Positions 3,026-63,314 of a DNA stretch of 64,000 bases are shown here, piece by piece (position 1 is the first letter of the stretch; every line of letters begins with the position of its first letter). This DNA comes from an uncultured Gammaproteobacteria bacterium (GTDB lineage Bacteria > Patescibacteriota > Microgenomatia > Levybacterales > GWA1-39-11). The notes under the pieces were generated by a model, which worked only from the letters and a program-made list of their open reading frames with translations, was not told where the DNA came from and did not search any database. The stretch is from the NCBI GenBank assembly GCA_964448725.1, contig CAYVAJ010000001.1, forward strand, positions 7,525 to 71,524, written 5' to 3'. A program made the translations under genes and the position numbers.

Positions 3026-3763
3026 TTAGGAGATAGTCGTGCCAATAAAATCTGTATTAAGAAAATATTTTTCCAGATTTTCAAAATTATTACCTTTTAT
3101 AATAACAACTGTCAATCCAAGTTCTCGAGCTTTTTTTGCTGCAATAGGGTCAAATGGAACATTCATACCAGGAGTCCATTCCTCACCAACAAGTTTTTGA
3201 AAATTATCCCAAGAAATTGTATCGATTGGCGTTGCATCAGGATTGTCTTTAGGATCAGAATCAAATACTTTTTCAATATTTGACATATTAATAACAGTAC
3301 CCACTGTATAATCCTCACATACCATTGTCGCACAAAAATCTGTAGACCAGCCAGGACGCCAGCCTGACGCAACCACCACTGGCTCCTCTACCTTTCGAAT
3401 GATATCATACCGATCTAAAATAACAGGGTGTGCTACATCTCGAAAAATTGTTCGCACGAGATGAGCATTTACCCGAGTTGCATGAATTCCTAACCAATCT
3501 AAATCTTCATTGGTTACTTTTTGAATAACTTCCCGTGCAGCTTTTTGATACTGACGAGTTGTAGTACCGCCACCAACCACAATAAAAAACTGATAGTCTG
3601 GATTTTGTTCTAGTTTTGAACGGATGAAAGTATTAAATTTGGAGAGAAAATCAGTATCAATACCGGATGGTGGGACAATTAGTGATCCTCCCACTGACAT
3701 AACAATTTTCTTTTTTTTATTTGGTTTGTAAACCATGCCATCCATAACCTTATCAAACAGCAT
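3026..3763 (-). CDS. pyrH: UMP kinase (amino-acid kinase family, archaeal-like PyrH)
   Basis: VGGSLIVP and FIVVGGGTTTRQY glycine-rich kinase motifs. DWLGIHATRVNAHLV resembles the UMPK D.LGMLATVMNA block. Confidence 0.65.
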   Translation of the reverse strand: MLFDKVMDGMVYKPNKKKKIVMSVGGSLIVPPSGIDTDFLSKFNTFIRSKLEQNPDYQFFIVVGGGTTTRQYQKAAREVIQKVTNEDLDWLGIHATRVNAHLVRTIFRDVAHPVILDRYDIIRKVEEPVVVASGWRPGWSTDFCATMVCEDYTVGTVINMSNIEKVFDSDPKDNPDATPIDTISWDNFQKLVGEEWTPGMNVPFDPIAAKKARELGLTVVIIKGNNFENLEKYFLNTDFIGTTIS

Positions 3764-15021: not shown

Positions 15022-16422
15022 TTAGAGGCTATTTACTGCTTTCTGGAACTGAATTCCTCGGTCTTTATAGTCTTTGAACATATCAAAACTCGCACACGCA
15101 GGTGATAACAATACTACATCTCCTGGTTCTGCTACCTCTGCTGCCTTCTGTACTACTTCATCAAGAGAGGATAATCCTTCAATAATTTGAAAATGCCAAT
15201 CATTAATCTGTTCTTTTATCCGTGGCCATTCTGAACCTATCCCAATAATTGCTTTTATATTTTCTGACTTTCCAATAACTTCTCCAAGCATTGTAAAATC
15301 ACTATTTTTACTTGAACCTCCAAGTATGAGAATTTCAGGGTCTTCAAATGCCAGTATCGCTGCTTGGGCTGTTTCAGGAGTTGTTGAGAACGAATCGTCA
15401 TAATATCGTACTCCTTTAACAGTTTTTACTAATTCCAATCTATGTTCTAATCCTTTAAATGTCTTGAGAATGTCCGTGACTGATTCCTTTGAGACGTTAG
15501 CAAGCGTTGCAGCCATGACTGCTGCACATACATTTTCCCAATTGTGTTTACCAGGAAGCGCAATGTCTTTAGTATCTATAATTATTTCTTCTAAATTCTG
15601 CTTTTTATTTTTTGTACTTTCAGCTTGAGAGGCATTACGTATAACAACTTTATTATTTTGAATGTAACACCCTTGTTCTACTTCCTGTTCTCGTGATACA
15701 AAATACAGTTTTGCATCAGTGTGTGTATCGGATTCATTGCTTGCTGGATAATCTTTATTTAAGACTGCGAAATCTTTAACAGTTTGATATTTCAATATAT
15801 TCCTCTTTGCCTCTACATATTCATAAATATCTTTGTGATAATCCAAATGCTCTGCAGTTACCATCAGCATTACAGCGATATGAGGACTTTTTTCAAGATC
15901 AATTAATTGGAAGCTCGAAAGCTCAAGCATGACAACACTTTCTTGAGATAATTTTTCAATAAAATCAAGTGCAGGAGTTCCAATATTGCCACCAATATAT
16001 GCATCTCGTCCGTCAGCTTTGAGCATTTTATAAATAAGCGTAGCAGTTGTCCCTTTTCCCTTTGTACCAGTTACTCCAATAATAGGACAAGGACAGAGGT
16101 CAAAAAACAACTTTGTTACAGACGTGATTTTTTTTCCTTTCTCAAGGAGATACTGTAATTCGGGATTTTTCAAACTCACACCAGGGGATCGAACAATAAT
16201 ATCAAATTGTAATAAATCAGGATATTTTCCAAAGACAAATTGTATTCCTTTTCCTTTTAGACTTTGAATAATAGTAGGATCAAATTCACTTTCTAATTTT
16301 TTATCTACTACGGTAACCAAGGCTCCATTTCTCATTAAAAAATTAACAGCAGATACGCCTTCCACACCAAACCCTACTACTGCTACTGATTTATTGGAAA
16401 AATTTGCTATATATGAAGCCAT
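15022..16422 (-). CDS. murD: UDP-N-acetylmuramoylalanine--D-glutamate ligase MurD
   Basis: VAVVGFGVEG Rossmann N-terminus, GVTGTKGKGTT Mur ligase P-loop. 466 aa. Confidence 0.9.
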   Translation of the reverse strand: MASYIANFSNKSVAVVGFGVEGVSAVNFLMRNGALVTVVDKKLESEFDPTIIQSLKGKGIQFVFGKYPDLLQFDIIVRSPGVSLKNPELQYLLEKGKKITSVTKLFFDLCPCPIIGVTGTKGKGTTATLIYKMLKADGRDAYIGGNIGTPALDFIEKLSQESVVMLELSSFQLIDLEKSPHIAVMLMVTAEHLDYHKDIYEYVEAKRNILKYQTVKDFAVLNKDYPASNESDTHTDAKLYFVSREQEVEQGCYIQNNKVVIRNASQAESTKNKKQNLEEIIIDTKDIALPGKHNWENVCAAVMAATLANVSKESVTDILKTFKGLEHRLELVKTVKGVRYYDDSFSTTPETAQAAILAFEDPEILILGGSSKNSDFTMLGEVIGKSENIKAIIGIGSEWPRIKEQINDWHFQIIEGLSSLDEVVQKAAEVAEPGDVVLLSPACASFDMFKDYKDRGIQFQKAVNSL

Positions 16423-16449
16423 AGAGGTAATTCTGTATATTTAATTATG

Positions 16450-16524
16450 TGGCTGGAGCGGGGATCGAACCCGCGACCGCCGCGTTATGAATGCGGTGCT
16501 ACGAACCAGCCGAGCTCTCCAGCC
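16450..16524 (-). tRNA. tRNA-Met(CAT) elongator-type (could be tRNA-Ile2 if lysidinylated)
   Basis: Minus-strand GGCTGGA-GA-GCTC...CCGCA-TTCATAA-CGCGG...GCGGG-TTCGATC-CCCGC-TCCAGCC-A. Perfect acceptor and T arms. Anticodon CAT. G1-C72. No encoded CCA. Confidence 0.8.
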
Positions 16525-16633
16525 TTTAGGCATTCATTTTACCATACTTATGCATCATTTTGAAGCAGAGGGTTGCTTGACAATAGATTCATTTTTCACG
16601 TAAAATTAATAATTGTAATAAACGTGTAATATT

Positions 16634-17005
16634 ATGTTAGAAACAGTTTTCGGAGGATTTTTAGGATTCTCTCTTTTCACTCTTACATCTCATCCAGATT
16701 CACCGATTAGCGGAAAATTCCCTTCTAAAAAACTCTGGCGTTTTCATATCTCTCCTGAAGTAAAAGTACAACTTCGAAATACTTTTGTACATCTTCATCA
16801 TTGGCTCATTTTTGTCGGTGTGTACCTCTTTATTCAAACAACAGAGAAAGCATTTCTTCAATCAGATGTAGTACAAGGATTTGTAATTGGAAGCATTGCA
16901 CAAGGGCTCACTTATGAAGATCGTTTTATGGTGTTTTATAATGCCACTACCCAAAAGATTCGAGGAAAACGAGAGTTCCTACAGACTAACACACTGGGCA
17001 AATAA
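16634..17005 (+). CDS. hypothetical protein with N-terminal hydrophobic segment
   Basis: 123-aa ORF. Possible -35/-10 (TTGACA-17-GTAAAAT) upstream at about 16571. Confidence 0.3.
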   Translation: MLETVFGGFLGFSLFTLTSHPDSPISGKFPSKKLWRFHISPEVKVQLRNTFVHLHHWLIFVGVYLFIQTTEKAFLQSDVVQGFVIGSIAQGLTYEDRFMVFYNATTQKIRGKREFLQTNTLGK

Positions 17006-17075
17006 ATATTCCAATTCTTTTAATTTTCTAAAAAACGTTCATACATAATCTCAACACAACAGCCATGTTTAATAT

Positions 17076-17150
17076 GGCGGAGGAGGCCGGATTTCCCTCA
17101 AGGGGACTGCCTCGATGGACATCGGGGAGGGCTTCTCATTCCGCTTTTTG
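17076..17150 (-). other. tRNA-Ser(GGA)-trailing element: two hairpins plus a copy of the tRNA 3' terminus (AATCCgGCCTCCTCCGCCA)
   Basis: Minus-strand sequence directly 3' of tRNA-Ser(GGA): GGAATGAGAAG, hairpin CGATG-tc-CATCG, hairpin TCCCCttgAGGGA, then a near-exact repeat of the last 18 nt of the tRNA including GCCA. Confidence 0.5.
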
Positions 17151-17234
17151 CGGAGGAGGCGGGATTCGAACCCGCGAGAGCTTGCGCTCGCACGCTTTCC
17201 AAGCGTGTGGAATAGTCCACTATCCGACTCCTCC
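17151..17234 (-). tRNA. tRNA-Ser(GGA)
   Basis: Class II tRNA with long variable arm. Acceptor GGAGGAG/CTCCTCC. Anticodon loop TTGGAAA. T arm GCGGG-TTCGAAT-CCCGC. Discriminator G. Confidence 0.85.
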
Positions 17235-17245
17235 TAGCTAGCTTA

Positions 17246-17683
17246 TCAGAGACTATTTACTATTTTTTTAATTTGCGGCAATAACTTTCTATACATTTTC
17301 TTAGCGTTATCATAGGTAAGTTTCTGTTCTACTTCATCCAATACCACCCACTCAACATTTTCCATTTCATGATCTTTCTCAGCAAAATCTCCACCAAGAT
17401 GTTTCATGATAAAGTAAAAAACAGTTTTTTTTCTACGTTCACCATTCCATTTGTACCAGTAAGTTTCTTCACCTGCCTCTTCTAGAATCTCTGCGTTTAT
17501 GCCTGTTTCTTCTTTTACTTCTCGTACCGCAGTAGCTTCTTTTGATTCACCTTCTTGCTTATCTCCAATATGACCTTTGGGAAATCCCCACCCATGATGC
17601 TGTGCATGCTGTGCCATTAACACAAAAACTTTATCTTGTTCTTTTTTCAGGACTATTCCACCTGCAGAGAATTCTTGTTTCAT
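17246..17683 (-). CDS. NUDIX hydrolase
   Basis: Nudix box GHIGDKQEGESKEATAVREVKEETGI (GX5EX7REVXEEXGU). Confidence 0.85.
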   Translation of the reverse strand: MKQEFSAGGIVLKKEQDKVFVLMAQHAQHHGWGFPKGHIGDKQEGESKEATAVREVKEETGINAEILEEAGEETYWYKWNGERRKKTVFYFIMKHLGGDFAEKDHEMENVEWVVLDEVEQKLTYDNAKKMYRKLLPQIKKIVNSL

Positions 17684-17749
17684 AATAAAATTGCTAAATT
17701 ATACACAAAAATAGAAAGTGCCTTCAGCGGGAATTTTTGCAACCACTTG

Positions 17750-17822
17750 TACACCTGAGAGGATTCGAACCTCCAACCGCTAGATCCGGAATCTAGTGCT
17801 CTATCCATTAAGCTACAGGTGC
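17750..17822 (-). tRNA. tRNA-Arg(CCG)
   Basis: GCACCTG-TA-GCTT..GAGC-A-CTAGA-TTCCGGA-TCTAG...TTGGAGG? T arm GGAGG-TTCGAAT-CCTCT with acceptor CAGGTGT-A. Anticodon CCG. 73 nt. Confidence 0.8.
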
Positions 17823-17889
17823 GTCACATTTCTCTCCGGCTCTGCCATGCAGAGATTTTCTTTCCTTATAAAGTCCTCAGTGTGATAAA

Positions 17890-17964
17890 GGCGGAGGGTA
17901 CAGGATTTCCCCCGAGGGGATAGCCATTGCATGGCTGACTTCTCATCCTGCACTCTCCTCTTTG
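17890..17964 (-). other. tRNA-Ser(CGA)-trailing element, homologous to the one after tRNA-Ser(GGA), ending in a copy of this tRNA's 3' terminus
   Basis: Minus strand: GGATGAGAAG, hairpin AGCCATgcaATGGCT, hairpin TCCCCtcgGGGGA, then AATCCTGTACCCTCCGCC identical to the 3' end of the adjacent tRNA-Ser(CGA). Confidence 0.5.
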
Positions 17965-18053
17965 CGGAGGGTACAGGATTCGAACCTGTGGATCCGTCAG
18001 TTGGCGGATCGAGTTTTCGAAACTCGTGCAATTGGCCACTATGCGAACCCTCC
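17965..18053 (-). tRNA. tRNA-Ser(CGA)
   Basis: Class II tRNA. Acceptor GGAGGGT/ACCCTCC. Anticodon loop TTCGAAA (anticodon CGA). T arm ACAGG-TTCGAAT-CCTGT. Long variable arm. Discriminator G. Confidence 0.85.
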
Positions 18054-18118
18054 CTCAGTAACATTTCTTCAGAGCATGCCTTTTCTTGGAAAGGTTTACA
18101 CTGAGCATAATGAATATG

Positions 18119-18190
18119 TGCTCCTGGCGAGAATCGAACTCACATCAGAGGATCCGCAATCCCCCATTCTATCCGTTGAACTACAGGAGC
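18119..18190 (-). tRNA. tRNA-Arg(GCG)
   Basis: GCTCCTG-TA-GTTC-AACGGATA-GAAT-G-GGGGA-TTGCGGA-TCCTC-TGAT-GTGAG-TTCGATT-CTCGC-CAGGAGC-A. Anticodon GCG with G37. Archaeal-style anticodon for CGN codons. Confidence 0.7.
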
Positions 18191-18288
18191 GTATGATGAC
18201 ATTCCACATCCGAATATTCACACTAACAAGTTTTACTCGGTGTATTACTCAGGGTATTGTATCACAATTTGAGGGTAAAATAAGAGGT

Positions 18289-18870
18289 TTATCGTCCTTC
18301 TAATGGAAAGTTCTTTGATAACCAATCAGCACTTTGCTCAACAAAAGTCGGCTTAACATACTCACGATATGGTAGAAAATTAACTAAAATGCGACGAACA
18401 TGTTCTCGAGGAATTGATCCCAGTGTCAATTTTAGCTCACCAGGAAGTAGAACTTCTGTTCTCACAATCAATGTATCGCTATGATCTACCTCTTTAAAGT
18501 AGAAATCATACATTTCTGACCAAATGTAAAAATGGTCCTCTACTCTAATTCCTTCAGAAGTAATCTTATAATGAAAATCTTTGGGAGGAATTGTGTACAG
18601 CACAAGAGATAAAAAAACAAGAGCAAGCACAACTACCATAAGCGGATACCATGAGAAAAGAAAGAGAATAATCTCCACTAAAAGCATGAGTAAAATTATC
18701 GTTGCATAGAACTGTCTGCCCTTTTTTGTAAATGGTCTACCAGGAGCACTCCAGGAAAGATAGGTATGTACATCATTGTACATAGGGAAATTATTCTCTT
18801 GTACGTATTGTTTAGAATTATCATTACCCTCCATACTACTATGATGCACCAAAAATGGGACAAAAAGCAA
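18289..18870 (-). CDS. hypothetical membrane protein
   Basis: 193-aa ORF with two central TM helices and a soluble C-terminal domain. No motif. Confidence 0.4.
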   Translation of the reverse strand: MLFVPFLVHHSSMEGNDNSKQYVQENNFPMYNDVHTYLSWSAPGRPFTKKGRQFYATIILLMLLVEIILFLFSWYPLMVVVLALVFLSLVLYTIPPKDFHYKITSEGIRVEDHFYIWSEMYDFYFKEVDHSDTLIVRTEVLLPGELKLTLGSIPREHVRRILVNFLPYREYVKPTFVEQSADWLSKNFPLEGR

Positions 18871-18898
18871 GTAGAGGAGAACTAAAAATCACTTGCTT

Positions 18899-19804
18899 TT
18901 AGAGTTCTTGAAGAATTGTACTCTCACCTTTTTTATTATCTTTTATATACTGAAGGTAACGCTCAGTTGATGATAATCTTTTGTGTCCCAGTACCTTAGA
19001 TAAGAAAACAATAGACACTCCTTGTTTTAAGTGATGAGAGACAAATGTATGACGTAAATCATTGATTTTTGCATTTTCAATCCCTGCTTTACGGAAATGA
19101 CGTTCAACAGCATCACGAATATTTCGAACAAGAAATGGCTTTCCTGTTTTTGTCACAAATAAATGGTTGTCTTCTGTCTTTGTTCTGACCTCTAAGTACC
19201 GCTTTAAAGCTTCTTTTGCTCGTTTATTAAGTGGAACCTCCCGTGCTTCATGCCCTTCATGCGGACGAATATACAGTCCGTTCTCTCGTACATCATCAAG
19301 TCTAATATTTGCAAGTTCTCCAATACGAATCCCAGTTTGTAATAATACTTCAATAATTGCATAAATCCGAGGATCAGAAGATGCAGTATCACGAAGTGCG
19401 CGATATTCAAGTGGACTGAGAACGCGTGGTGGATTTAACTCATATTTAGGATGCTGAACCATAAGTGATGGATCATCAGTAATATACTCACTTATCTTTA
19501 AGAATCTATAAAATGTTCGTGTTGAGTTGAGTTTGCGTGATAATGATTTTGGAGTATAGCCTGTATCCTGCAACTTAGTTAAAAATGCTTGGATATCTTG
19601 ATCATTGACCTCATGGATATGCTGTTTTTCCAACTCCTCAAGAAAAGAAACAAGTTGGTCAATATCTTTTCCATATGCTAATATGGTTGCAGATGCCTTA
19701 TTTTTTCCTTTTAAGTAATCTTGAAATTTACCATGAGCGTCTCGAAGTTTTACCTGGTTTGACATAGACAAACCTATAATATCAACACACCTTCGTTTTG
19801 TCAA
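18899..19804 (-). CDS. tyrosine site-specific recombinase, XerC/XerD family (start possibly at internal Met near 19765)
   Basis: Core-binding N-domain plus catalytic domain with R...HxxR...Y pattern (LRHTFVSHHL ... LGHKRLSSTERYLQY). Confidence 0.8.
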   Translation of the reverse strand: MTKRRCVDIIGLSMSNQVKLRDAHGKFQDYLKGKNKASATILAYGKDIDQLVSFLEELEKQHIHEVNDQDIQAFLTKLQDTGYTPKSLSRKLNSTRTFYRFLKISEYITDDPSLMVQHPKYELNPPRVLSPLEYRALRDTASSDPRIYAIIEVLLQTGIRIGELANIRLDDVRENGLYIRPHEGHEAREVPLNKRAKEALKRYLEVRTKTEDNHLFVTKTGKPFLVRNIRDAVERHFRKAGIENAKINDLRHTFVSHHLKQGVSIVFLSKVLGHKRLSSTERYLQYIKDNKKGESTILQEL

Positions 19805-19805
19805 T

Positions 19806-20147
19806 ATGAATTATAAATTGATTTTAACCAGTATTACTATCATCATTTTAGTTATCATTCTTCGTAACACAATACTTTCCATTCATAATCTGATTGAAAA
19901 TGAAGGGACAGTACAAGATCTGCATGATGTGTTAGATGCTAAAAAAAAAGAAAATGAGTTTTTAACACAAAGACTCTCGTATGTAAAAAGCAACGAATTT
20001 GTAGAACATGAAGCACGTATAAAATTAGGTCTTGTAAGAGAAAATGAATATCCTGTATTTGTTATGCCACCCAATAATAATCAAGAAATCTCTGGGTTAA
20101 ATCAAAAACCAAACTGGGTAAAATGGAAAGAAGTTTTTAAGCTTTAA
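19806..20147 (+). CDS. cell division protein FtsB/DivIC-like (septum formation initiator family)
   Basis: N-terminal TM, coiled coil, and C-terminal EHEARIKLGLVRENEYPVFV block typical of the FtsB/DivIC family. Confidence 0.55.
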   Translation: MNYKLILTSITIIILVIILRNTILSIHNLIENEGTVQDLHDVLDAKKKENEFLTQRLSYVKSNEFVEHEARIKLGLVRENEYPVFVMPPNNNQEISGLNQKPNWVKWKEVFKL

Positions 20148-20185
20148 TTTAGAAGTTATTATGCTCAGGTTTCAGGGATACCTTG

Positions 20186-20255
20186 TTGCGGGGCAAGGAG
20201 TTGAACCTTGTCTGCAAGATTATGAGCCTCGCGTGCAGCCGTACACTACCCCGCG
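20186..20255 (-). tRNA. tRNA-Met(CAT), possibly initiator (C1xA72 mismatch)
   Basis: CGCGGGG-TA-GTGT..GCAC-G-CGAGG-CTCATAA-TCTTG-CAGA-CAAGG-TTCAACT-CCTTG-CCCCGCA-A. Anticodon CAT. C1.A72 mismatch as in bacterial initiators, but lacks the three G-C pairs in the anticodon stem. Confidence 0.65.
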
Positions 20256-20354
20256 GCAATGTACTCAAATTATATAGTTCAAACCGTATGTTGTCAAACA
20301 ACGAGCCACTCTGCTTGTTTTTTGCTCATTTTTACTGTACAATTCAGATTAATC

Positions 20355-21047
20355 ATGGCACAACGAGAAACTATTACAGTACAACCGCGAACAGTCTTTG
20401 GCAAACAGCTTAAAAAACTTCGAAGAGAAGGAATTCTTCCAGGAAATGTGTATGGCAAAAACTTTTCGTCTACCGCAGTTCAGCTTCCGTATAAAGATTT
20501 TATAGGACTTTATAACAAAGTAGGTACAACTGGGCTTGTTGATCTTGAGATTGATGGGAAAAAACATCCTGTTCTCATTCATAATATTGCAATTAATACT
20601 TTAACTCATGATCCAATACATGCTGACTTCTTTATTGTAAATTTGAAAGAAAAAATTACCGCAAATGTACCTATTATTGCTGAGGGAGAGGCAAGCGCTG
20701 TTGCAGAAAAGAAAGGTATATTACTTCAATTACTCAATGAGGCTGAAATAGAAGCACTACCTTCTGATCTTCCTGAGTCTATTGTTGTTGATGTGACATC
20801 ACTTGCCGAAGTTGATGAACAAATAACAGTTGAGCAGCTAAGCACACCAACTGGTGTTACACTTCTTAACGAAGCTAATCAAGCAGTATTCAAAATAGGT
20901 GAATTAGTAACCCAAGAGGCACAAGAACAAGAAGCACAAGAAGAAGCTGAGGCTGCAGCAGCAAGTGAAGAAGGCGCAACAGAAAGTGAATCAACTGAAA
21001 AATCTGAAGGTGAATCATCATCTGACAGTGCTGAGAAGCAAGAATAA
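20355..21047 (+). CDS. rplY: 50S ribosomal protein L25 / general stress protein Ctc (bL25) with acidic C-terminal tail
   Basis: MAQRETITVQPRTVFGKQLKKLRREGILPGNVYGK is the classic bL25 N-terminus. The ORF-track start at 20259 overlaps the tRNA; ATG at 20355 preferred. Confidence 0.85.
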   Translation: MAQRETITVQPRTVFGKQLKKLRREGILPGNVYGKNFSSTAVQLPYKDFIGLYNKVGTTGLVDLEIDGKKHPVLIHNIAINTLTHDPIHADFFIVNLKEKITANVPIIAEGEASAVAEKKGILLQLLNEAEIEALPSDLPESIVVDVTSLAEVDEQITVEQLSTPTGVTLLNEANQAVFKIGELVTQEAQEQEAQEEAEAAAASEEGATESESTEKSEGESSSDSAEKQE

Positions 21048-56095: not shown

Positions 56096-56375
56096 TCCGC
56101 GATAGCTCAATGGTAGAGCAGGTCGCTGTAAACATAAATGCAGCTCTCGGTAGAAATGCCGAGATGATAACTGGGCTAATTCGGGGAAACCCACACCAAT
56201 AGGTGTTGGGCGATCCCGAGCTAAATTGATGCACAATCTAGTACATCATAAATGTGTAGAGACTATATACCCAGGATCTAAATCGAAAGACATGATCAAG
56301 AGATAGTCCAAGCCTTTTGGTAACAAGAGGAAACTTGTAACGACAAGGTTCTAGGTTCGAATCCTAGTCGCGGAG
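56096..56375 (+). tRNA. tRNA-Asn(GTT) interrupted by a group I intron between anticodon positions 35 and 36 (exons 56096..56129 and 56338..56375)
   Basis: Exon 1 TCCGCGA-TA-GCTC-AATGGTA-GAGC-A-GGTCG-CTGT. Exon 2 TAA-CGACA-AGGTT-CTAGG-TTCGAAT-CCTAG-TCGCGGA-G. Spliced anticodon loop CTGTTAA, discriminator G, U1-A72 as in bacterial tRNA-Asn. Confidence 0.75.
56130..56337 (+). ncRNA. group I self-splicing intron (208 nt, tRNA-anticodon-loop type)
   Basis: P1 GCUGU|AAACAUAAAU-GCAGC with U.G at the 5' splice site. P-like ATTCGGGGAAACCC and Q-like GATCCCGAGC. R-like GTAGAGACTATA (about 56255) and S-like AAGAGATAGTCC (about 56298) forming P7 GACUA/UAGUC. Terminal G (CTTG|TAA). Confidence 0.75.
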
Positions 56376-57932
56376 CCCATTAGTCGTTAATATACCCAAT
56401 TTGGCCTTGTTTAGGACATCTATAACTGGCTGATACTGTATATTAACGACTTTTTTGTTTTCAATTAGGATTTTTTCAAAGAAGAAGTTCAAATAGGCAC
56501 GTTTCGCATTAGTATCTGCTTCCTTATAGGTTGTGGCTATATCCCGTGTTAGTGCTAGTACATCATCAACAATTTTGACATCGATAGTACGGATTTTATT
56601 TATATCCGCTAGCTCTTTTTGAACCTCTAGCATTTCTGCATCAATTTTGGCGTTTAGAACCATAAACCTATCCCGTGTAATAGTTCCTTCTAGTAGCTCT
56701 TCCTCCAATCGTTCCCGCTTTATTTCTAGGGCATCTCTGCGGTTGTAGGATCCCTTTTTGGCTACTTTCACCCGCTCATTGGTATTCTCATATACCTTAC
56801 GGACATTACGCTTTACTGCTTCTATGAATTCTTGGCTAAATTGTAGCTTTTCAACTTCTTTCTCTACCTGTTTTTCCAATTCGTCTATTTCAACATAGCT
56901 AGTAGGGCATTTATGGACACGGCCAATGCCACTGCAATGATAATAGCCAATCCTGCCACCCCTGTTAGCAAATTTCTTCTCATTAACATGCCATTCTGCC
57001 GTGTATCGTTTATCACATAGATTGCAAATAGCCACACCTCGTAATAGGAAATTATGCTTCCGTTGCCTAATGCCAAAATCACCTTTTCTTCGTAGTGTGT
57101 ACTGGACTATATCGAATGTCTTTTTATCAATTAGTGGGATATGTTTTCCCATAGCTTCCATGCCTCCGTATCGCATCCATCCCCAATAAAAAGGGTTCTT
57201 TAAGATGTTGTGCATTAGTGAATAGGCTAATGGCCTTCCTGTTTTGCCTCGCACTCCACTATTGTGCAAGTATTCACGAACTGAAAATATTGAATGGCTG
57301 CCTGTTGCGTACATCTTAAATGCTTGGGTAATGAATGGTGCGGTTTGTGGATCAGGAACAATTATGCGTTTGTCATACGATCCCGTAGGGTTCTTATTGA
57401 CTACATTCATATAACCAACAATAGCTACTGATGGGTAATATCCCGCTTTGAATTTCTCGGCTGCTGTTTGTTTGACTTTATAACTGGTTAGTCTTGGTTG
57501 TATTGAATGGACTACCGCTATCATTTCGTCCATAACTTCGGATAGCGGATTATCATCCATGCTTACAGATCCTGTTAATGGAACAATAGTAGTACCGTGT
57601 TTCTTTAGAGTTTGTTTGATAAATAAATACTCATAGGTGTTTCTTGCTACCCGTGAACTATCCTGCACAATTACATAGTCAATATCTCCTTTTGCACATC
57701 TGGCTAGGATTGCTTGAAATGCGGTTCGTTTATCTAAAGATGTACCGCTAATGCCACCATCAACATATATTTCTTCTGCCAACTCACCACCCAATTCTTC
57801 AACCTTTCCTAATATCTTTGTCTTTTGAACATCTAAACTCAATCCGTTATCACGCTGGCCAACTGTGGAAACCCTGCCATATCCTAAACATCGGGGAATA
57901 TTATTAGTATGCTGGATAGTATCAATTCTCAT
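56364..57932 (-). CDS. large serine recombinase (integrase-type, resolvase N-domain + recombinase domain + zinc ribbon + coiled coil)
   Basis: LGYGRVSTVGQ catalytic serine motif, recombinase domain, CNLCDKRY...YYHC zinc ribbon, long coiled-coil C-terminus. Its 3' end overlaps the last 12 nt of tRNA-Asn. Confidence 0.9.
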   Translation of the reverse strand: MRIDTIQHTNNIPRCLGYGRVSTVGQRDNGLSLDVQKTKILGKVEELGGELAEEIYVDGGISGTSLDKRTAFQAILARCAKGDIDYVIVQDSSRVARNTYEYLFIKQTLKKHGTTIVPLTGSVSMDDNPLSEVMDEMIAVVHSIQPRLTSYKVKQTAAEKFKAGYYPSVAIVGYMNVVNKNPTGSYDKRIIVPDPQTAPFITQAFKMYATGSHSIFSVREYLHNSGVRGKTGRPLAYSLMHNILKNPFYWGWMRYGGMEAMGKHIPLIDKKTFDIVQYTLRRKGDFGIRQRKHNFLLRGVAICNLCDKRYTAEWHVNEKKFANRGGRIGYYHCSGIGRVHKCPTSYVEIDELEKQVEKEVEKLQFSQEFIEAVKRNVRKVYENTNERVKVAKKGSYNRRDALEIKRERLEEELLEGTITRDRFMVLNAKIDAEMLEVQKELADINKIRTIDVKIVDDVLALTRDIATTYKEADTNAKRAYLNFFFEKILIENKKVVNIQYQPVIDVLNKAKLGILTTNGLRD

Positions 57933-58430
57933 AATTCTCTAGTATTTCAATCATCGCTGATTAAACTCAGGCTGGATTCAGCTTAGGAAATTTAGCCGAT
58001 TTCTGTAAGCCTTTCTTATCTTTTGACAGTAGGAAATCAACCATCATTTCAACCCATTTCTCCGCCAACATATCTATGTCATCCTCACGGAGGGGAGTAG
58101 CATTTTTAAGTCGCGTGTTGTTGGTGTTCTTACCGATCTTCTTCATGTTAGTTACTGCTTGGATTAATATCCCTATTTACAAGAAATATGCGACTCGCGA
58201 ATGTATGCGGGGATGTGGGTATTGCGAAAAACTGACTCTTAGTAGTCTTACGATTCTGCCTTAAATGACTGTTAATGAGTCTTTTACAAGAATAAAGTGA
58301 GGAATTACATTGAGGTAAATAAACTATGCTATGTGTACATATGTATACATAAGTTATGTAAACATTTAGTCCATATAAGTGAGTAAACATAAGATTGTTG
58401 TTTGATGTAATGTTTGTAATAGGCATAGAA

Positions 58431-62627: not shown

Positions 62628-63233
62628 CTAACTAAAATTTCCTCTTATTAAACCGACGAATTTACCTCTGATTTCTAGTTGCTCTGGAATAATTATTTCA
62701 TATTTTGGATTTTTAGGTTGTAAGATTGTCCTGCCATTTTGTTGCCCTAATACTTTTAGCGTTGCTCCTTTTTCTGTAATACCCACAACTGTATCTCCTA
62801 TATCTGCTGTCATTTGATGCTTGATTAGAACAACGTCATTATCAAGGATTCCCATATCAATCATGCTATCTCCCTTTACTCTTAATGCATAATAGGACTG
62901 ATTAGAAGATAGCCTAATACTATTTGGAACTTGTATTGATTCTGCATTTTCAATCGGTTCTATGGGTTCACCGGCAGCAATAAATCCTAATAAAGGAATT
63001 GTTTGTTTTTGTGTGATTGGTGCTATACCTCTATTTTTGTGAGGATCACGTTTTAAGTATCCTTTTTTCTCTAATTCTTCGATGTAGTATTGAGCAGTAC
63101 TTAAGTTTTCAGTATCAAGAAATTTAGCCAATTCACGAAGAGAGGGAGCATATCCATTATTAGCCATGAATGAATTTATAAAATCTAATGCCTCTTTTTG
63201 CTTATCCGTTAATGGCTTGACTTTAATATCCAT
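62628..63233 (-). CDS. LexA-like repressor (winged-helix DNA-binding domain + S24 peptidase domain)
   Basis: N-terminal LTDKQKEALDFI...GYAPSLRELAKFL...LEKKGYLKR (LexA DNA-binding domain). C-terminal VKGDSM (Ser) and EIRGKFVGLIR (Lys) catalytic dyad. Confidence 0.8.
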   Translation of the reverse strand: MDIKVKPLTDKQKEALDFINSFMANNGYAPSLRELAKFLDTENLSTAQYYIEELEKKGYLKRDPHKNRGIAPITQKQTIPLLGFIAAGEPIEPIENAESIQVPNSIRLSSNQSYYALRVKGDSMIDMGILDNDVVLIKHQMTADIGDTVVGITEKGATLKVLGQQNGRTILQPKNPKYEIIIPEQLEIRGKFVGLIRGNFS

Positions 63234-63314
63234 ATTATGATAACTTTATGATAAATTTATAGTTGTGTCAAGTCGGTATAAATATATCAAAAGCATGAGG
63301 AGGTGAAGTAAAAA

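Follow-up and report, generated by a model that had tools for sequence, protein, structure and literature searches.

The question raised by the tRNA gene cluster of this contig is why both of its tRNA-Ser genes are immediately followed by a short element that ends in a second copy of the 3' end of the tRNA gene in front of it. The window, the whole stretch of 64,000 nucleotides that was analysed, carries six tRNA genes in this cluster, all on the minus strand (Met, Ser(GGA), Arg(CCG), Ser(CGA), Arg(GCG) and Met, according to ARAGORN and Rfam). Homologous elements of about 75 nt, as had been reported in an earlier note made from the sequence, lie directly 3' of both tRNA-Ser genes, element A at 17075-17150 and element B at 17889-17964. 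A and B are small, cargo-less members of a Patescibacteria-wide family of folded elements, 60-110 nt in length. The folded module that the members share is, with a probability of about 0.5, the conserved end of integrase-less insertion cassettes that target the T-loop of tRNA genes, with the tail being the displaced tRNA end.

The genes for tRNA-Ser(GGA) (17151..17234; ARAGORN; Rfam tRNA, 51.3 bits) and tRNA-Ser(CGA) (17965..18053; ARAGORN and Rfam tRNA) are both intact; CCA is not encoded in the former, which continues with CAAAAAG, and the latter continues with CAAAGAG. The tail of element B, AATCCTGTACCCTCCGC, is identical to the last 17 nt of tRNA-Ser(CGA) (17/17), and the tail of element A, AATCCgGCCTCCTCCGC, agrees at 16 of 17 positions with the last 17 nt of tRNA-Ser(GGA) (AATCCcGCC...). 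Each tail fits its own tRNA and not the other tRNA-Ser, exactly as the earlier note had it. After the tails, CCA is found in A and CCU (CCT) in B, whereas both real tRNAs continue with CAAA. The 18-nt pattern TCCCCTYGRGGGAAATC C, which covers the second hairpin, occurs exactly twice in the 64 kb, against 0.06 occurrences expected by chance. Covariance model R1, built from 25 members of the family described below, matches only A and B in the window and nothing after the tRNA-Arg or tRNA-Met genes, which bears out the claim that the tRNA-Arg genes lack the element.

Read in the tRNA sense, i.e., on the minus strand as for all features of both elements, element A is CAAAAA-GCGGAAU-GAGAAGCCCU-CCCCGAU GUCC AUCGAGG-CAG-UCCC CUUGA GGGA-A-AUCCGGCCUCCUCC-G-CCA. 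The spacer CAAAAA between the tRNA and the 5' arm (17145..17150) places it by sequence in the short-form spacer class. The arm GCGGAAU (17138..17144), a degenerate mimic of the T-stem 5' strand, forms the 5' strand of the closing helix, P1, and pairs imperfectly with AUCCGGC. It is followed by the conserved junction GAGAAGCCCU (17128..17137), for which alignment A2 of 25 distinct copies gives the family consensus GAGAAGCGCC. The first hairpin, hp1, CCCCGAU-GUCC-AUCGAGG (17110..17127), contains one C·A mismatch according to the alignment and pairing statistics, and is of the type found in L019 (labels in the style of L001-L045 denote loci, that is contigs, recovered in this analysis). The hairpin previously read here as CGAUG/CAUCG is indeed present and is better read as CCCCGAU/AUCGAGG. 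In the second hairpin, hp2, UCCCCUUGAGGGA (17094..17106; pattern scan and alignment), a G-to-A change weakens the stem relative to the family form UCCCCUUGGGGGA. The tail AAUCCGGCCUCCUCCG (17078..17093) comprises the P1 3' strand, the acceptor 3' strand and the discriminator, and reproduces the 3' end of tRNA-Ser(GGA) but for one mismatch; right after it stands CCA (17075..17077), and then a hairpin GCCAUAUUAAACAUGGC with a U-rich run (17062-17078), a terminator-like site.

Element B, in the same sense, is CAAAGA-GGAGAGUGCAGGAU-GAGAAGUC-AGCCAU GCA AUGGCU-A-UCCCC UCG GGGGA-A-AUCCUGUACCCUCC-G-CCU. Its long 5' arm GGAGAGUGCAGGAU (17945..17958) mimics an acceptor 5' strand fused to a T-stem 5' strand, and pairs with the tail at 13 of 14 positions (fold and arm pairing table). 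The conserved junction GAGAAGUC (17937..17944; alignment A2) leads to hp1, AGCCAU-GCA-AUGGCU (17922..17936; fold, alignment and pairing statistics), with the AGCCAU/AUGGCU stem that had already been described, and to hp2, UCCCC-UCG-GGGGA (17908..17920; pattern scan, fold and alignment). The tail AAUCCUGUACCCUCCG (17892..17907) is an exact copy of the tRNA-Ser(CGA) 3' end, and the identity extends one base further, into C17891. The CCU that follows (17889..17891) is not separated by a terminator from the tRNA-Arg(CCG) gene downstream of the element (17749-17822, minus strand). The predicted fold of B consists of a 13-bp outer helix around two hairpins (minimum free energy -33.8 kcal/mol, z = -4.2), and the element is structurally intact. 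Element A, which is without the long arm of B, folds worse (z = -2.0), and each of its three helices is flawed: P1 by an extra A and a G·G, hp1 and hp2 by one C·A apiece. Element A is probably decaying.

The extent of the family was determined by one exact-pattern scan each of genomes and metagenomes (ATGAGAAG N15-45 CCCTYGRGGGAAATC, exact matching), to which syntenic loci were added. Of the nine loci that the scan of 185,579 species genomes returned, eight are convincing, and six of these are labelled Patescibacteria or Woesebacteria; the same scan of the JGI metagenomes returned 23, about 20 of which are convincing. The total is 33 full copies, folded and covarying, so that the further copies in related genomes that the earlier note had suggested looking for do exist; with the exception of those on unassigned contigs, all come from metagenome-assembled genomes (MAGs) of Patescibacteria, the Candidate Phyla Radiation (CPR). 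With model R1, all 33 copies are recovered, with scores of 51-82 bits, the window copies being among the lowest (A, 51.4; B, 57.6). Cargo-less copies, which span 55-110 nt, are the majority, and the element is co-oriented with the tRNA in every case. Most tails begin with 15 nt that are found again, without any mismatch, in the cognate tRNA upstream.

The target genes encode tRNA-Ser (GGA, CGA, UGA, GCU and an odd ACU), Ala(UGC), Val(CAC), Thr(CGU), Tyr(GUA), Glu(CUC), Lys(UUU) and Gln(CUG), with tRNA-Ser accounting for roughly half of the distinct element sites. The link to tRNA-Ser drawn earlier stands insofar as other Ser isoacceptors in other genomes do carry the element; it is not specific to tRNA-Ser, because the same core follows Ala, Val, Thr, Tyr, Glu, Lys and Gln in other Patescibacteria. 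Explanations built on a minihelix for seryl-tRNA synthetase (SerRS) or on another tRNA-Ser-specific role were dropped, as the family is found behind eight tRNA types. The odd anticodon belongs to tRNA-Ser genes with ACU (A34) in L017 (3214-3299) and L019 (2695-2780), which stand beside a normal tRNA-Ser(GCU) and are each followed by an element copy; this is unusual for bacteria. Two further element contigs, L015 and L022, are titled 'uncultured Gammaproteobacteria', although their sequence fits Patescibacteria-type loci (L015 represents the same locus as L026 and L032), and by this resemblance they are likely mis-binned. L028 looks like high-GC coding DNA in its upstream part and may be chimeric.

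The consensus of alignment A2 is (5' arm)AU-GAGAAG(C/U)GCC-[hp1]-(U)AG-UCCCC UUG GGGGA-A-AU(T-stem 3' strand)(acceptor 3' strand)(discriminator). The order of parts is constant: a 5' arm whose sequence complements the T-stem 3' strand comes first, then AUGAGAAG(C/U)GCC, a hairpin that varies with covariation, the near-invariant UCCCCUUGGGGGA hairpin, AAAUC, and the tRNA end. The box noted earlier as common to A and B is thus real, its correct form being AUGAGAAG, and A reads GGAAUGAGAAG with an extra A. The predicted fold is a three-way junction with a T-stem mimic as its closing helix. In P1, the 5' arm and AU pair with AU and the T-stem 3' strand, usually over 7-8 bp; in window B and L016/L037, the helix reaches over the acceptor strand. 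At least five unrelated sequences form hp1 (GCUUC/GAAGC, GCUAC/GUAGC, GCCAU/AUGGC, CCCCGAU/AUCGGGG and CGAUG/CAUCG), and its length varies; hp2 is nearly invariant, with a compensatory variant, UACC CUUGU GGUA, in the second unit of L019 (L019b). Pairing of GAGAAGC with the hp1 5' strand exists in the GCUUC-type copies only and was rejected as a family feature.

In the alignment, 88.9% of the cells expected to pair do so, compared to 78% in shuffles, and double-change cells number 52 against 20, while slid registers all score far lower. The covariation of P1 is partly inherited from tRNA T-stems; that of hp1 and hp2 is independent of them. The structure of the module is under constraint. Extra sequence is found solely as self-contained hairpins (L014, L016, L022 and L028) and as a 41-nt insertion in L018, L023 and L034. 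This self-folding insertion, at 6125-6190 of L018, lies in the P1 3' strand between AAATC and CCACC and displaces the tRNA-Thr tail; it is alike in all three samples.

These features bear on the possibility that the elements are functionless, decaying partial tandem duplicates of tRNA-Ser, kept alike by gene conversion. In favour of such duplicates are the tails, which equal the neighbouring tRNA 3' ends, and the degenerate look of copy A. Against them, a non-tRNA core of about 45 nt recurs, with covariation, behind at least eight tRNA types in many genomes, and homology to the tRNA is confined to 3-8 nt of the arm (14 in B) and the tail. No homology to the D-, anticodon- or variable arm was found, and neither ARAGORN nor the Rfam tRNA model calls either element a tRNA. 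The 5' arms are often unlike the T-stem 5' strand of the tRNA and are nevertheless complementary to the tail (AAGAG versus GAGAG in L015/L033; GCAGG versus ACAGG in window B). Older tails drift away from the tRNA, as in window A, L003, L014 and L030, instead of being kept concerted with it. The duplicate explanation, which the earlier note had offered, is effectively refuted by the family-wide conservation of the core and is hardly credible.

The tail corresponds to the last 14-18 nt of the tRNA, from about position 60 (59-60) to the discriminator plus 1-4 nt, and several tails run 2-7 nt past the discriminator. The element behind tRNA-Gln in L043 reads AAATC even though the T-loop of this tRNA, TTCAAGT, deviates; AAAUC is therefore supplied by the core, and identity to the target starts at about position 60. 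The variant module start AUUCGAAG, found in L019b and in a second family, X-type, resembles a T-loop, which suggests, as far as sequence likeness goes, that the module derives from a T-arm with an expanded loop. Since the counts of G·U and A·C pairs in P1 are similar, G·U not being more frequent, the folding strand (DNA strand or RNA sense) is not singled out.

The X-type units form a second tail-bearing family, seen in L016 just after tRNA-Glu (~3210-3340, minus strand) and in L019 (2240-2365), in tandem with the main family. Their layout is a T-stem 5' mimic, ATTCGAAG, long hairpins, GTGA(A)ACC, (G/A)AATC, the T-stem 3' strand and the acceptor 3' strand; thus, the architecture of an expanded-loop T-arm with a tRNA tail is not confined to one core. 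A core-less arrangement is found in L017 (1854-1990), where tRNA-Ser(GCU) and 11 nt are followed by a mini hairpin, GGTGAGA-TGTGTTCGT-TCTCACC, that runs on into a repeat of both the acceptor 3' strand and the CTTTTTT trailer. In L035 (131-225) and L041 (1941-2035, minus strand), arm and core split a longer tRNA fragment precisely between T60 and C61 (..TAAGGTCGTGGGTTCGAAT|AGGAGATGAGAAG..GGGGGAAAT|CCTACC..), which looks as if a core unit had been inserted into an older attachment (att) fragment.

The distribution among relatives was followed at the window locus, whose neighbours are tgt, murD, Nudix, XerC-like recombinase, L25 and glmS genes, through syntenic loci recovered via homologues of the Nudix protein (61-73% identical). 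Going by the names attached to Nudix homologues, the window belongs to Candidatus Levybacteria (Microgenomates, Patescibacteria/CPR). Three of the loci have the element after Ser(GGA): the window, L003, where it adjoins the tRNA directly, and L001, where an extra 50-nt hairpin precedes it and its tail matches the different tRNA-Ser(GGA) of L001 itself. No element follows Ser(GGA) in L002, L004-6, L007, L008-11 and L012/13; the tRNA of L002 is different, and L007, L008-11 and L012 have essentially the same tRNA-Ser(GGA), identical in L008, and are nevertheless element-free. After Ser(CGA), the window alone among the syntenic loci carries the element; the site is empty in L002, L003, L007 and L008, and in L003 and L008 the next tRNA begins 6-7 nt after Ser(CGA). 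Occupancy is therefore sporadic among close relatives, i.e., polymorphic. Other contigs with an identical Nudix protein represent the same strain and are identical to the window, so no strain-level empty site was found among them. In L001 (682-892), Ser(CGA) is missing between two tRNA-Arg genes, where a decayed 5' fragment, GAAGGGTTCGTATATTGG, is left. The core variant of window B resembles those of the L001 and L003 copies, which follow Ser(GGA).

A constrained fold might also be explained by a functional structured RNA derived from the trailer of the tRNA, an option named in the earlier note as well: co-transcribed with the tRNA, the module would serve as a processing or stability element, as a decoy for enzymes of the T-arm and acceptor, or as a new small ribozyme, and the cognate match would itself be functional. 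The covariation of hp1 and hp2, the strong conservation of the junction nucleotides and the restriction of expansions to self-contained hairpins (L014, L016, L018 and L028) agree with this, as does the 13-bp helix of B, which mimics an acceptor stem stacked on a T-stem. In diverged genomes, moreover, the modules at shared sites are as similar to each other (75-88% identity) as the tRNAs are. Such an RNA fits poorly with the absence of the element from many close relatives with an identical tRNA, with the drifting tails, and with copy A, which is defective in all three helices; G·U pairs are not in excess over A·C. Rfam 15 recognises only tRNAs in the window region 15500-21000, and the canonical L021 copy has no match even at E <= 10 to any Rfam family, all known self-cleaving ribozymes included. 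The junctions are unlike the hammerhead core, and hammerhead, twister and other ribozymes were rejected on the core sequence and the lack of a model match.

The spacer between tRNA and core supplies arguments on both sides. It is bimodal, with 9-21 nt (arm included) or 52-59 nt. In the short forms, including window A and B, no terminator separates the tRNA from the element, and co-transcription of the two is therefore likely, as a functional RNA would have it. The long spacers hold a stable hairpin, P0 (-13 to -21 kcal/mol), with the partly conserved sequence UUCGRCAAGCUCAG...CUGAG...UUGACGA, so that in the long forms a stable hairpin stands between the tRNA or the cargo and the core, at odds with an RNA processed from the tRNA transcript. 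In L016, L021, L022 and L037, P0 is built like a bidirectional terminator, with A-tract, GC-stem and U-tract; a simple terminator scan did not flag these four, probably because the tracts pair. Between P0 and the core, the promoter scan gave a single 9/12 match, in L021 only and not above chance, and a promoter at this place was rejected. Taken together, a functional RNA is a tentative alternative, unlikely though deserving serious attention.

Some units carry genes. The distance between tRNA and module is 0.64 kb in L021 (a 138-aa open reading frame (ORF)), 1.1 kb in L030 (a 230-aa ORF) and 1.8 kb in L041 (a methyltransferase and a gene without known function). In L016, an X-type unit with its own tail is followed by 1.4 kb coding for an EEP-family hydrolase and a small membrane protein. 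In L031/L040, at least 4.7 kb upstream of the module, including an Eco57I-like restriction-modification (R-M) enzyme and a PLD nuclease, were covered, and no tRNA was reached. The Pfam matches of the cargo are EEP, methyltransferase, R-M and PLD. L016, L019 and L017 contain units in tandem, and every unit ends in a tRNA-end copy of its own. At tRNA-Glu, P0 and the module lie directly behind the tRNA in L037, and behind an extra unit and cargo in L016. In the long forms, the left flank after the tRNA is element-borne, being conserved across different tRNAs (CAnUUCGRCAAGCUC...); the right flank, beyond the tail, lacks such conservation and in several cases contains the T-run expected after an original tRNA end.

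Unrelated cargo of diverse kinds between two conserved flanks would also be expected if the module were a fixed part of the chromosome that, together with the tRNA gene, offered two homology arms, so that strains could swap cargo through natural transformation followed by homologous recombination. The lack of a recombinase linked to the element and the retention of the module at the same tRNA in diverged genomes (L016/L037, L015/L033, L036/L038 and L022/L025) both accord with a fixed module. It leaves unexplained, however, the tRNA 3'-end copy at the module end, the tandem units with tails of their own, and the same lineage-specific core variant with re-fitted arms behind two tRNA-Ser genes, and sporadic presence among close relatives points to gain and loss. 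A fixed module of this kind is improbable.

The preferred reading is a site of integration. The element-borne left flank, the non-conserved right flank, the polymorphic occupancy and the accessory cargo fit the frame of tRNA integration, and this is the ground for reading the module as a recombination site and the tail as the displaced original tRNA end. A unit lies between the intact tRNA and the co-oriented copy of that tRNA's 3' end, and the two would represent the regenerated gene and the displaced fragment. The folded module at its distal end would be the element-side recombination site, comparable to attP or attC, and would probably act in a folded state, as single-stranded or extruded DNA. 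Recognition of this site by a recombinase acting in trans would lead to strand exchange with the tRNA gene in its T-loop/T-stem region, and the cargo, from none to several genes, would ride between the regenerated tRNA end and the module. Among the options of the earlier note, att-type remnants of insertions into tRNA 3' ends come closest, although the module is not a random remnant but a conserved, structured and covarying one.

Several observations weigh against integration by such a site. Units of 55-110 nt are too small to circularise as duplex, and a double-stranded circle so small could hardly serve as a substrate for recombination. The 5' arm is specific to the target tRNA, so that the element must be re-fitted for every new tRNA, and the conserved single-stranded junctions are also expected of a functional RNA. 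Copies at the same tRNA are 75-88% identical while the genome flanks are 66-77% identical, which may reflect host-level selection instead of mobility. Homologues of the EEP gene of L016 (62-77% identical) are located in contexts free of tRNAs and elements, and the homology ends with the coding region. No free or donor (attP) form was found in the IMG/VR viral contigs (two pattern scans), INPHARED phages or PLSDB plasmids (BLAST); as all of these searches were empty, a phage or plasmid origin was rejected. An enzyme was also sought at the loci. Searches by phmmer with the XerC-like protein of the window had no match in L014-L045, and with XerC-like and large serine recombinase queries no tyrosine or serine recombinase was detected within ~4-10 kb of the non-Levybacteria copies. 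All-against-all clustering of the ORFs of the loci revealed no recurrent family besides the synteny genes. The XerC-like gene near the cluster is itself syntenic in relatives both with and without elements.

The re-fitted arms leave room for a different mode of targeting, in which the module would be a programmable folded single-stranded site, of DNA or RNA, whose arm and tail could be re-fitted to any tRNA and at which a trans-acting enzyme would insert cassettes into T-arms. This version is rather doubtful at present.

The tail could, alternatively, be the footprint of tRNA-primed reverse transcription, namely a cDNA of the mature tRNA up to modified A58, captured beside the tRNA gene. A stop of reverse transcriptase at modified A58 is the reason why retroviral primer-binding sites are 18 nt long, and the match of the tail to the tRNA begins, on its left side, at about position 59-60. 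Moreover, CCA or CC follows the tail in window A, L003, L015, L026 and L032, where the tRNA gene has none. Most tails, however, are followed by CA, CAC or CAG and not by CCA, several extend into trailer sequence that is never part of the mature tRNA, and the position of the tail 3' of the core in the tRNA sense is the opposite of what primer extension would produce. No reverse transcriptase was seen near any copy, and an edge in the T-loop is equally typical of integrase crossover sites (PMC4383910). Such an origin is very improbable.

As for the surroundings of the cluster in the window, the XerC-like tyrosine recombinase gene (18899-19804, minus strand) and a gene for a conserved 193-aa membrane protein (18289-18870, minus strand) are located just upstream of the tRNA-Arg/Ser cluster. 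The 193-aa protein recurs beside tRNA-Ser clusters at 13 loci from several Microgenomates lineages, with or without elements. At 56367-57938 (minus strand), the window encodes a large serine recombinase (Resolvase, Recombinase and zinc-ribbon), and at 62631-63245 (minus strand) a LexA-like ORF; this region may be a separate integrated element, and no link between the large serine recombinase region and the tRNA elements was found.

The CPR have tiny genomes with few recognisable mobile elements, and their gene acquisition is poorly understood. If the module is a recombination site, insertion units could bring R-M, nuclease or methyltransferase genes to CPR tRNA sites by a recombination system acting in trans, and model R1 offers a sequence handle for mapping CPR gene flux. 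A programmable site would amount to an integron-like, tRNA-anchored cassette system specific to the CPR, implying either a recombination site of a new class or a nucleic acid that acts like a guide, and a module working as RNA would represent a new class of structured RNA whose 3' end mimics a tRNA. In annotating genomes, care is needed not to record these copies of tRNA 3' ends as tRNA fragments or pseudogenes.

Among known systems, tRNA-integrated islands have an intact tRNA gene, foreign DNA and a co-oriented 3' fragment beginning in the T-loop/T-stem in common with the CPR units (Islander, PMC4383910; phage Ms6, PMC1762012), as well as tandem units with fragments of their own, variable presence, and different tRNA targets from member to member. 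The signature of a tRNA gene with a displaced fragment, frequent crossovers in the T-stem region, integrase-less islands and frequent target switching have been documented (PMC4383910), and the attP core of Ms6 can be retargeted among tRNA-Ala T-loops (PMC1762012). Of the Islander signature, the CPR loci show the downstream 3' fragment of the same gene, the crossover start in the T-loop/T-stem and the presence/absence polymorphism, and no tyrosine integrase is encoded inside the unit. They differ from such islands in having no integrase on board or nearby, in their size (55-110 nt when cargo-less, a few kb with cargo so far), and in the three-way-junction module that precedes the fragment at the place of the T-loop, between the T-stem 5' mimic and the T-stem 3' strand. 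To our knowledge, no att site with such a module has been described.

Tycheposons, with their degraded remnants in Prochlorococcus islands, likewise occur in streamlined genomes, integrate repeatedly at tRNA genes, leave partial tRNAs and remnants, and carry accessory cargo; their tandem integrations push older units outward (bioRxiv 10.1101/2020.12.28.424599). Unlike the CPR units, they encode their own tyrosine or serine recombinases and replication genes, are kilobases long, and no folded module beside the partial tRNA has been reported for them (same source). Miniature inverted-repeat transposable elements (MITEs) and cis-mobilisable, att-only elements are similar in being small, non-coding and multi-copy, with inverted terminal arms (here P1) and a direct repeat of the target. 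In the CPR elements, by contrast, each 'terminal inverted repeat' is fitted to its target tRNA, the direct repeat greatly exceeds transposase duplications in length, and no autonomous parent was identified. Hammerhead and other small three-way-junction ribozymes are alike in size and in having three helices with linkers of 10, 3 and 1 nt. Inspection of alignment A2 for the hammerhead core (CUGANGA with GAA, A15.1-U16.1 and H17) found instead AUGAGAAG in place of CUGANGA, UAG in place of GAA and a reversed closing pair in the third stem, and no Rfam hammerhead model matched.

The comparison with integron cassettes and their attC sites concerns the organisation of the units. Both are integrase-less, co-oriented cassettes without a conserved left end, which may be empty or very short and carry a 3' imperfect-palindrome site in which structure matters more than the central sequence; in the CPR, too, a structured site with a variable centre stands at the 3' end of each co-oriented unit. 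No IntI or other tyrosine recombinase was found near the arrays, nor an attI, and the ends are conserved as (T5')AU...AAAUC(T3') with no GTTRRRY core. In contrast to integron cassettes, the CPR units are anchored at a tRNA gene, their junctions and hp2 are strongly conserved, and the repeat consists of 14-18 nt of the tRNA. Thus, insertion at tRNA 3' ends with a displaced fragment is known from other systems, while the conserved structured module and the integrase-less, cassette-like organisation in the CPR are, as far as is known, new.

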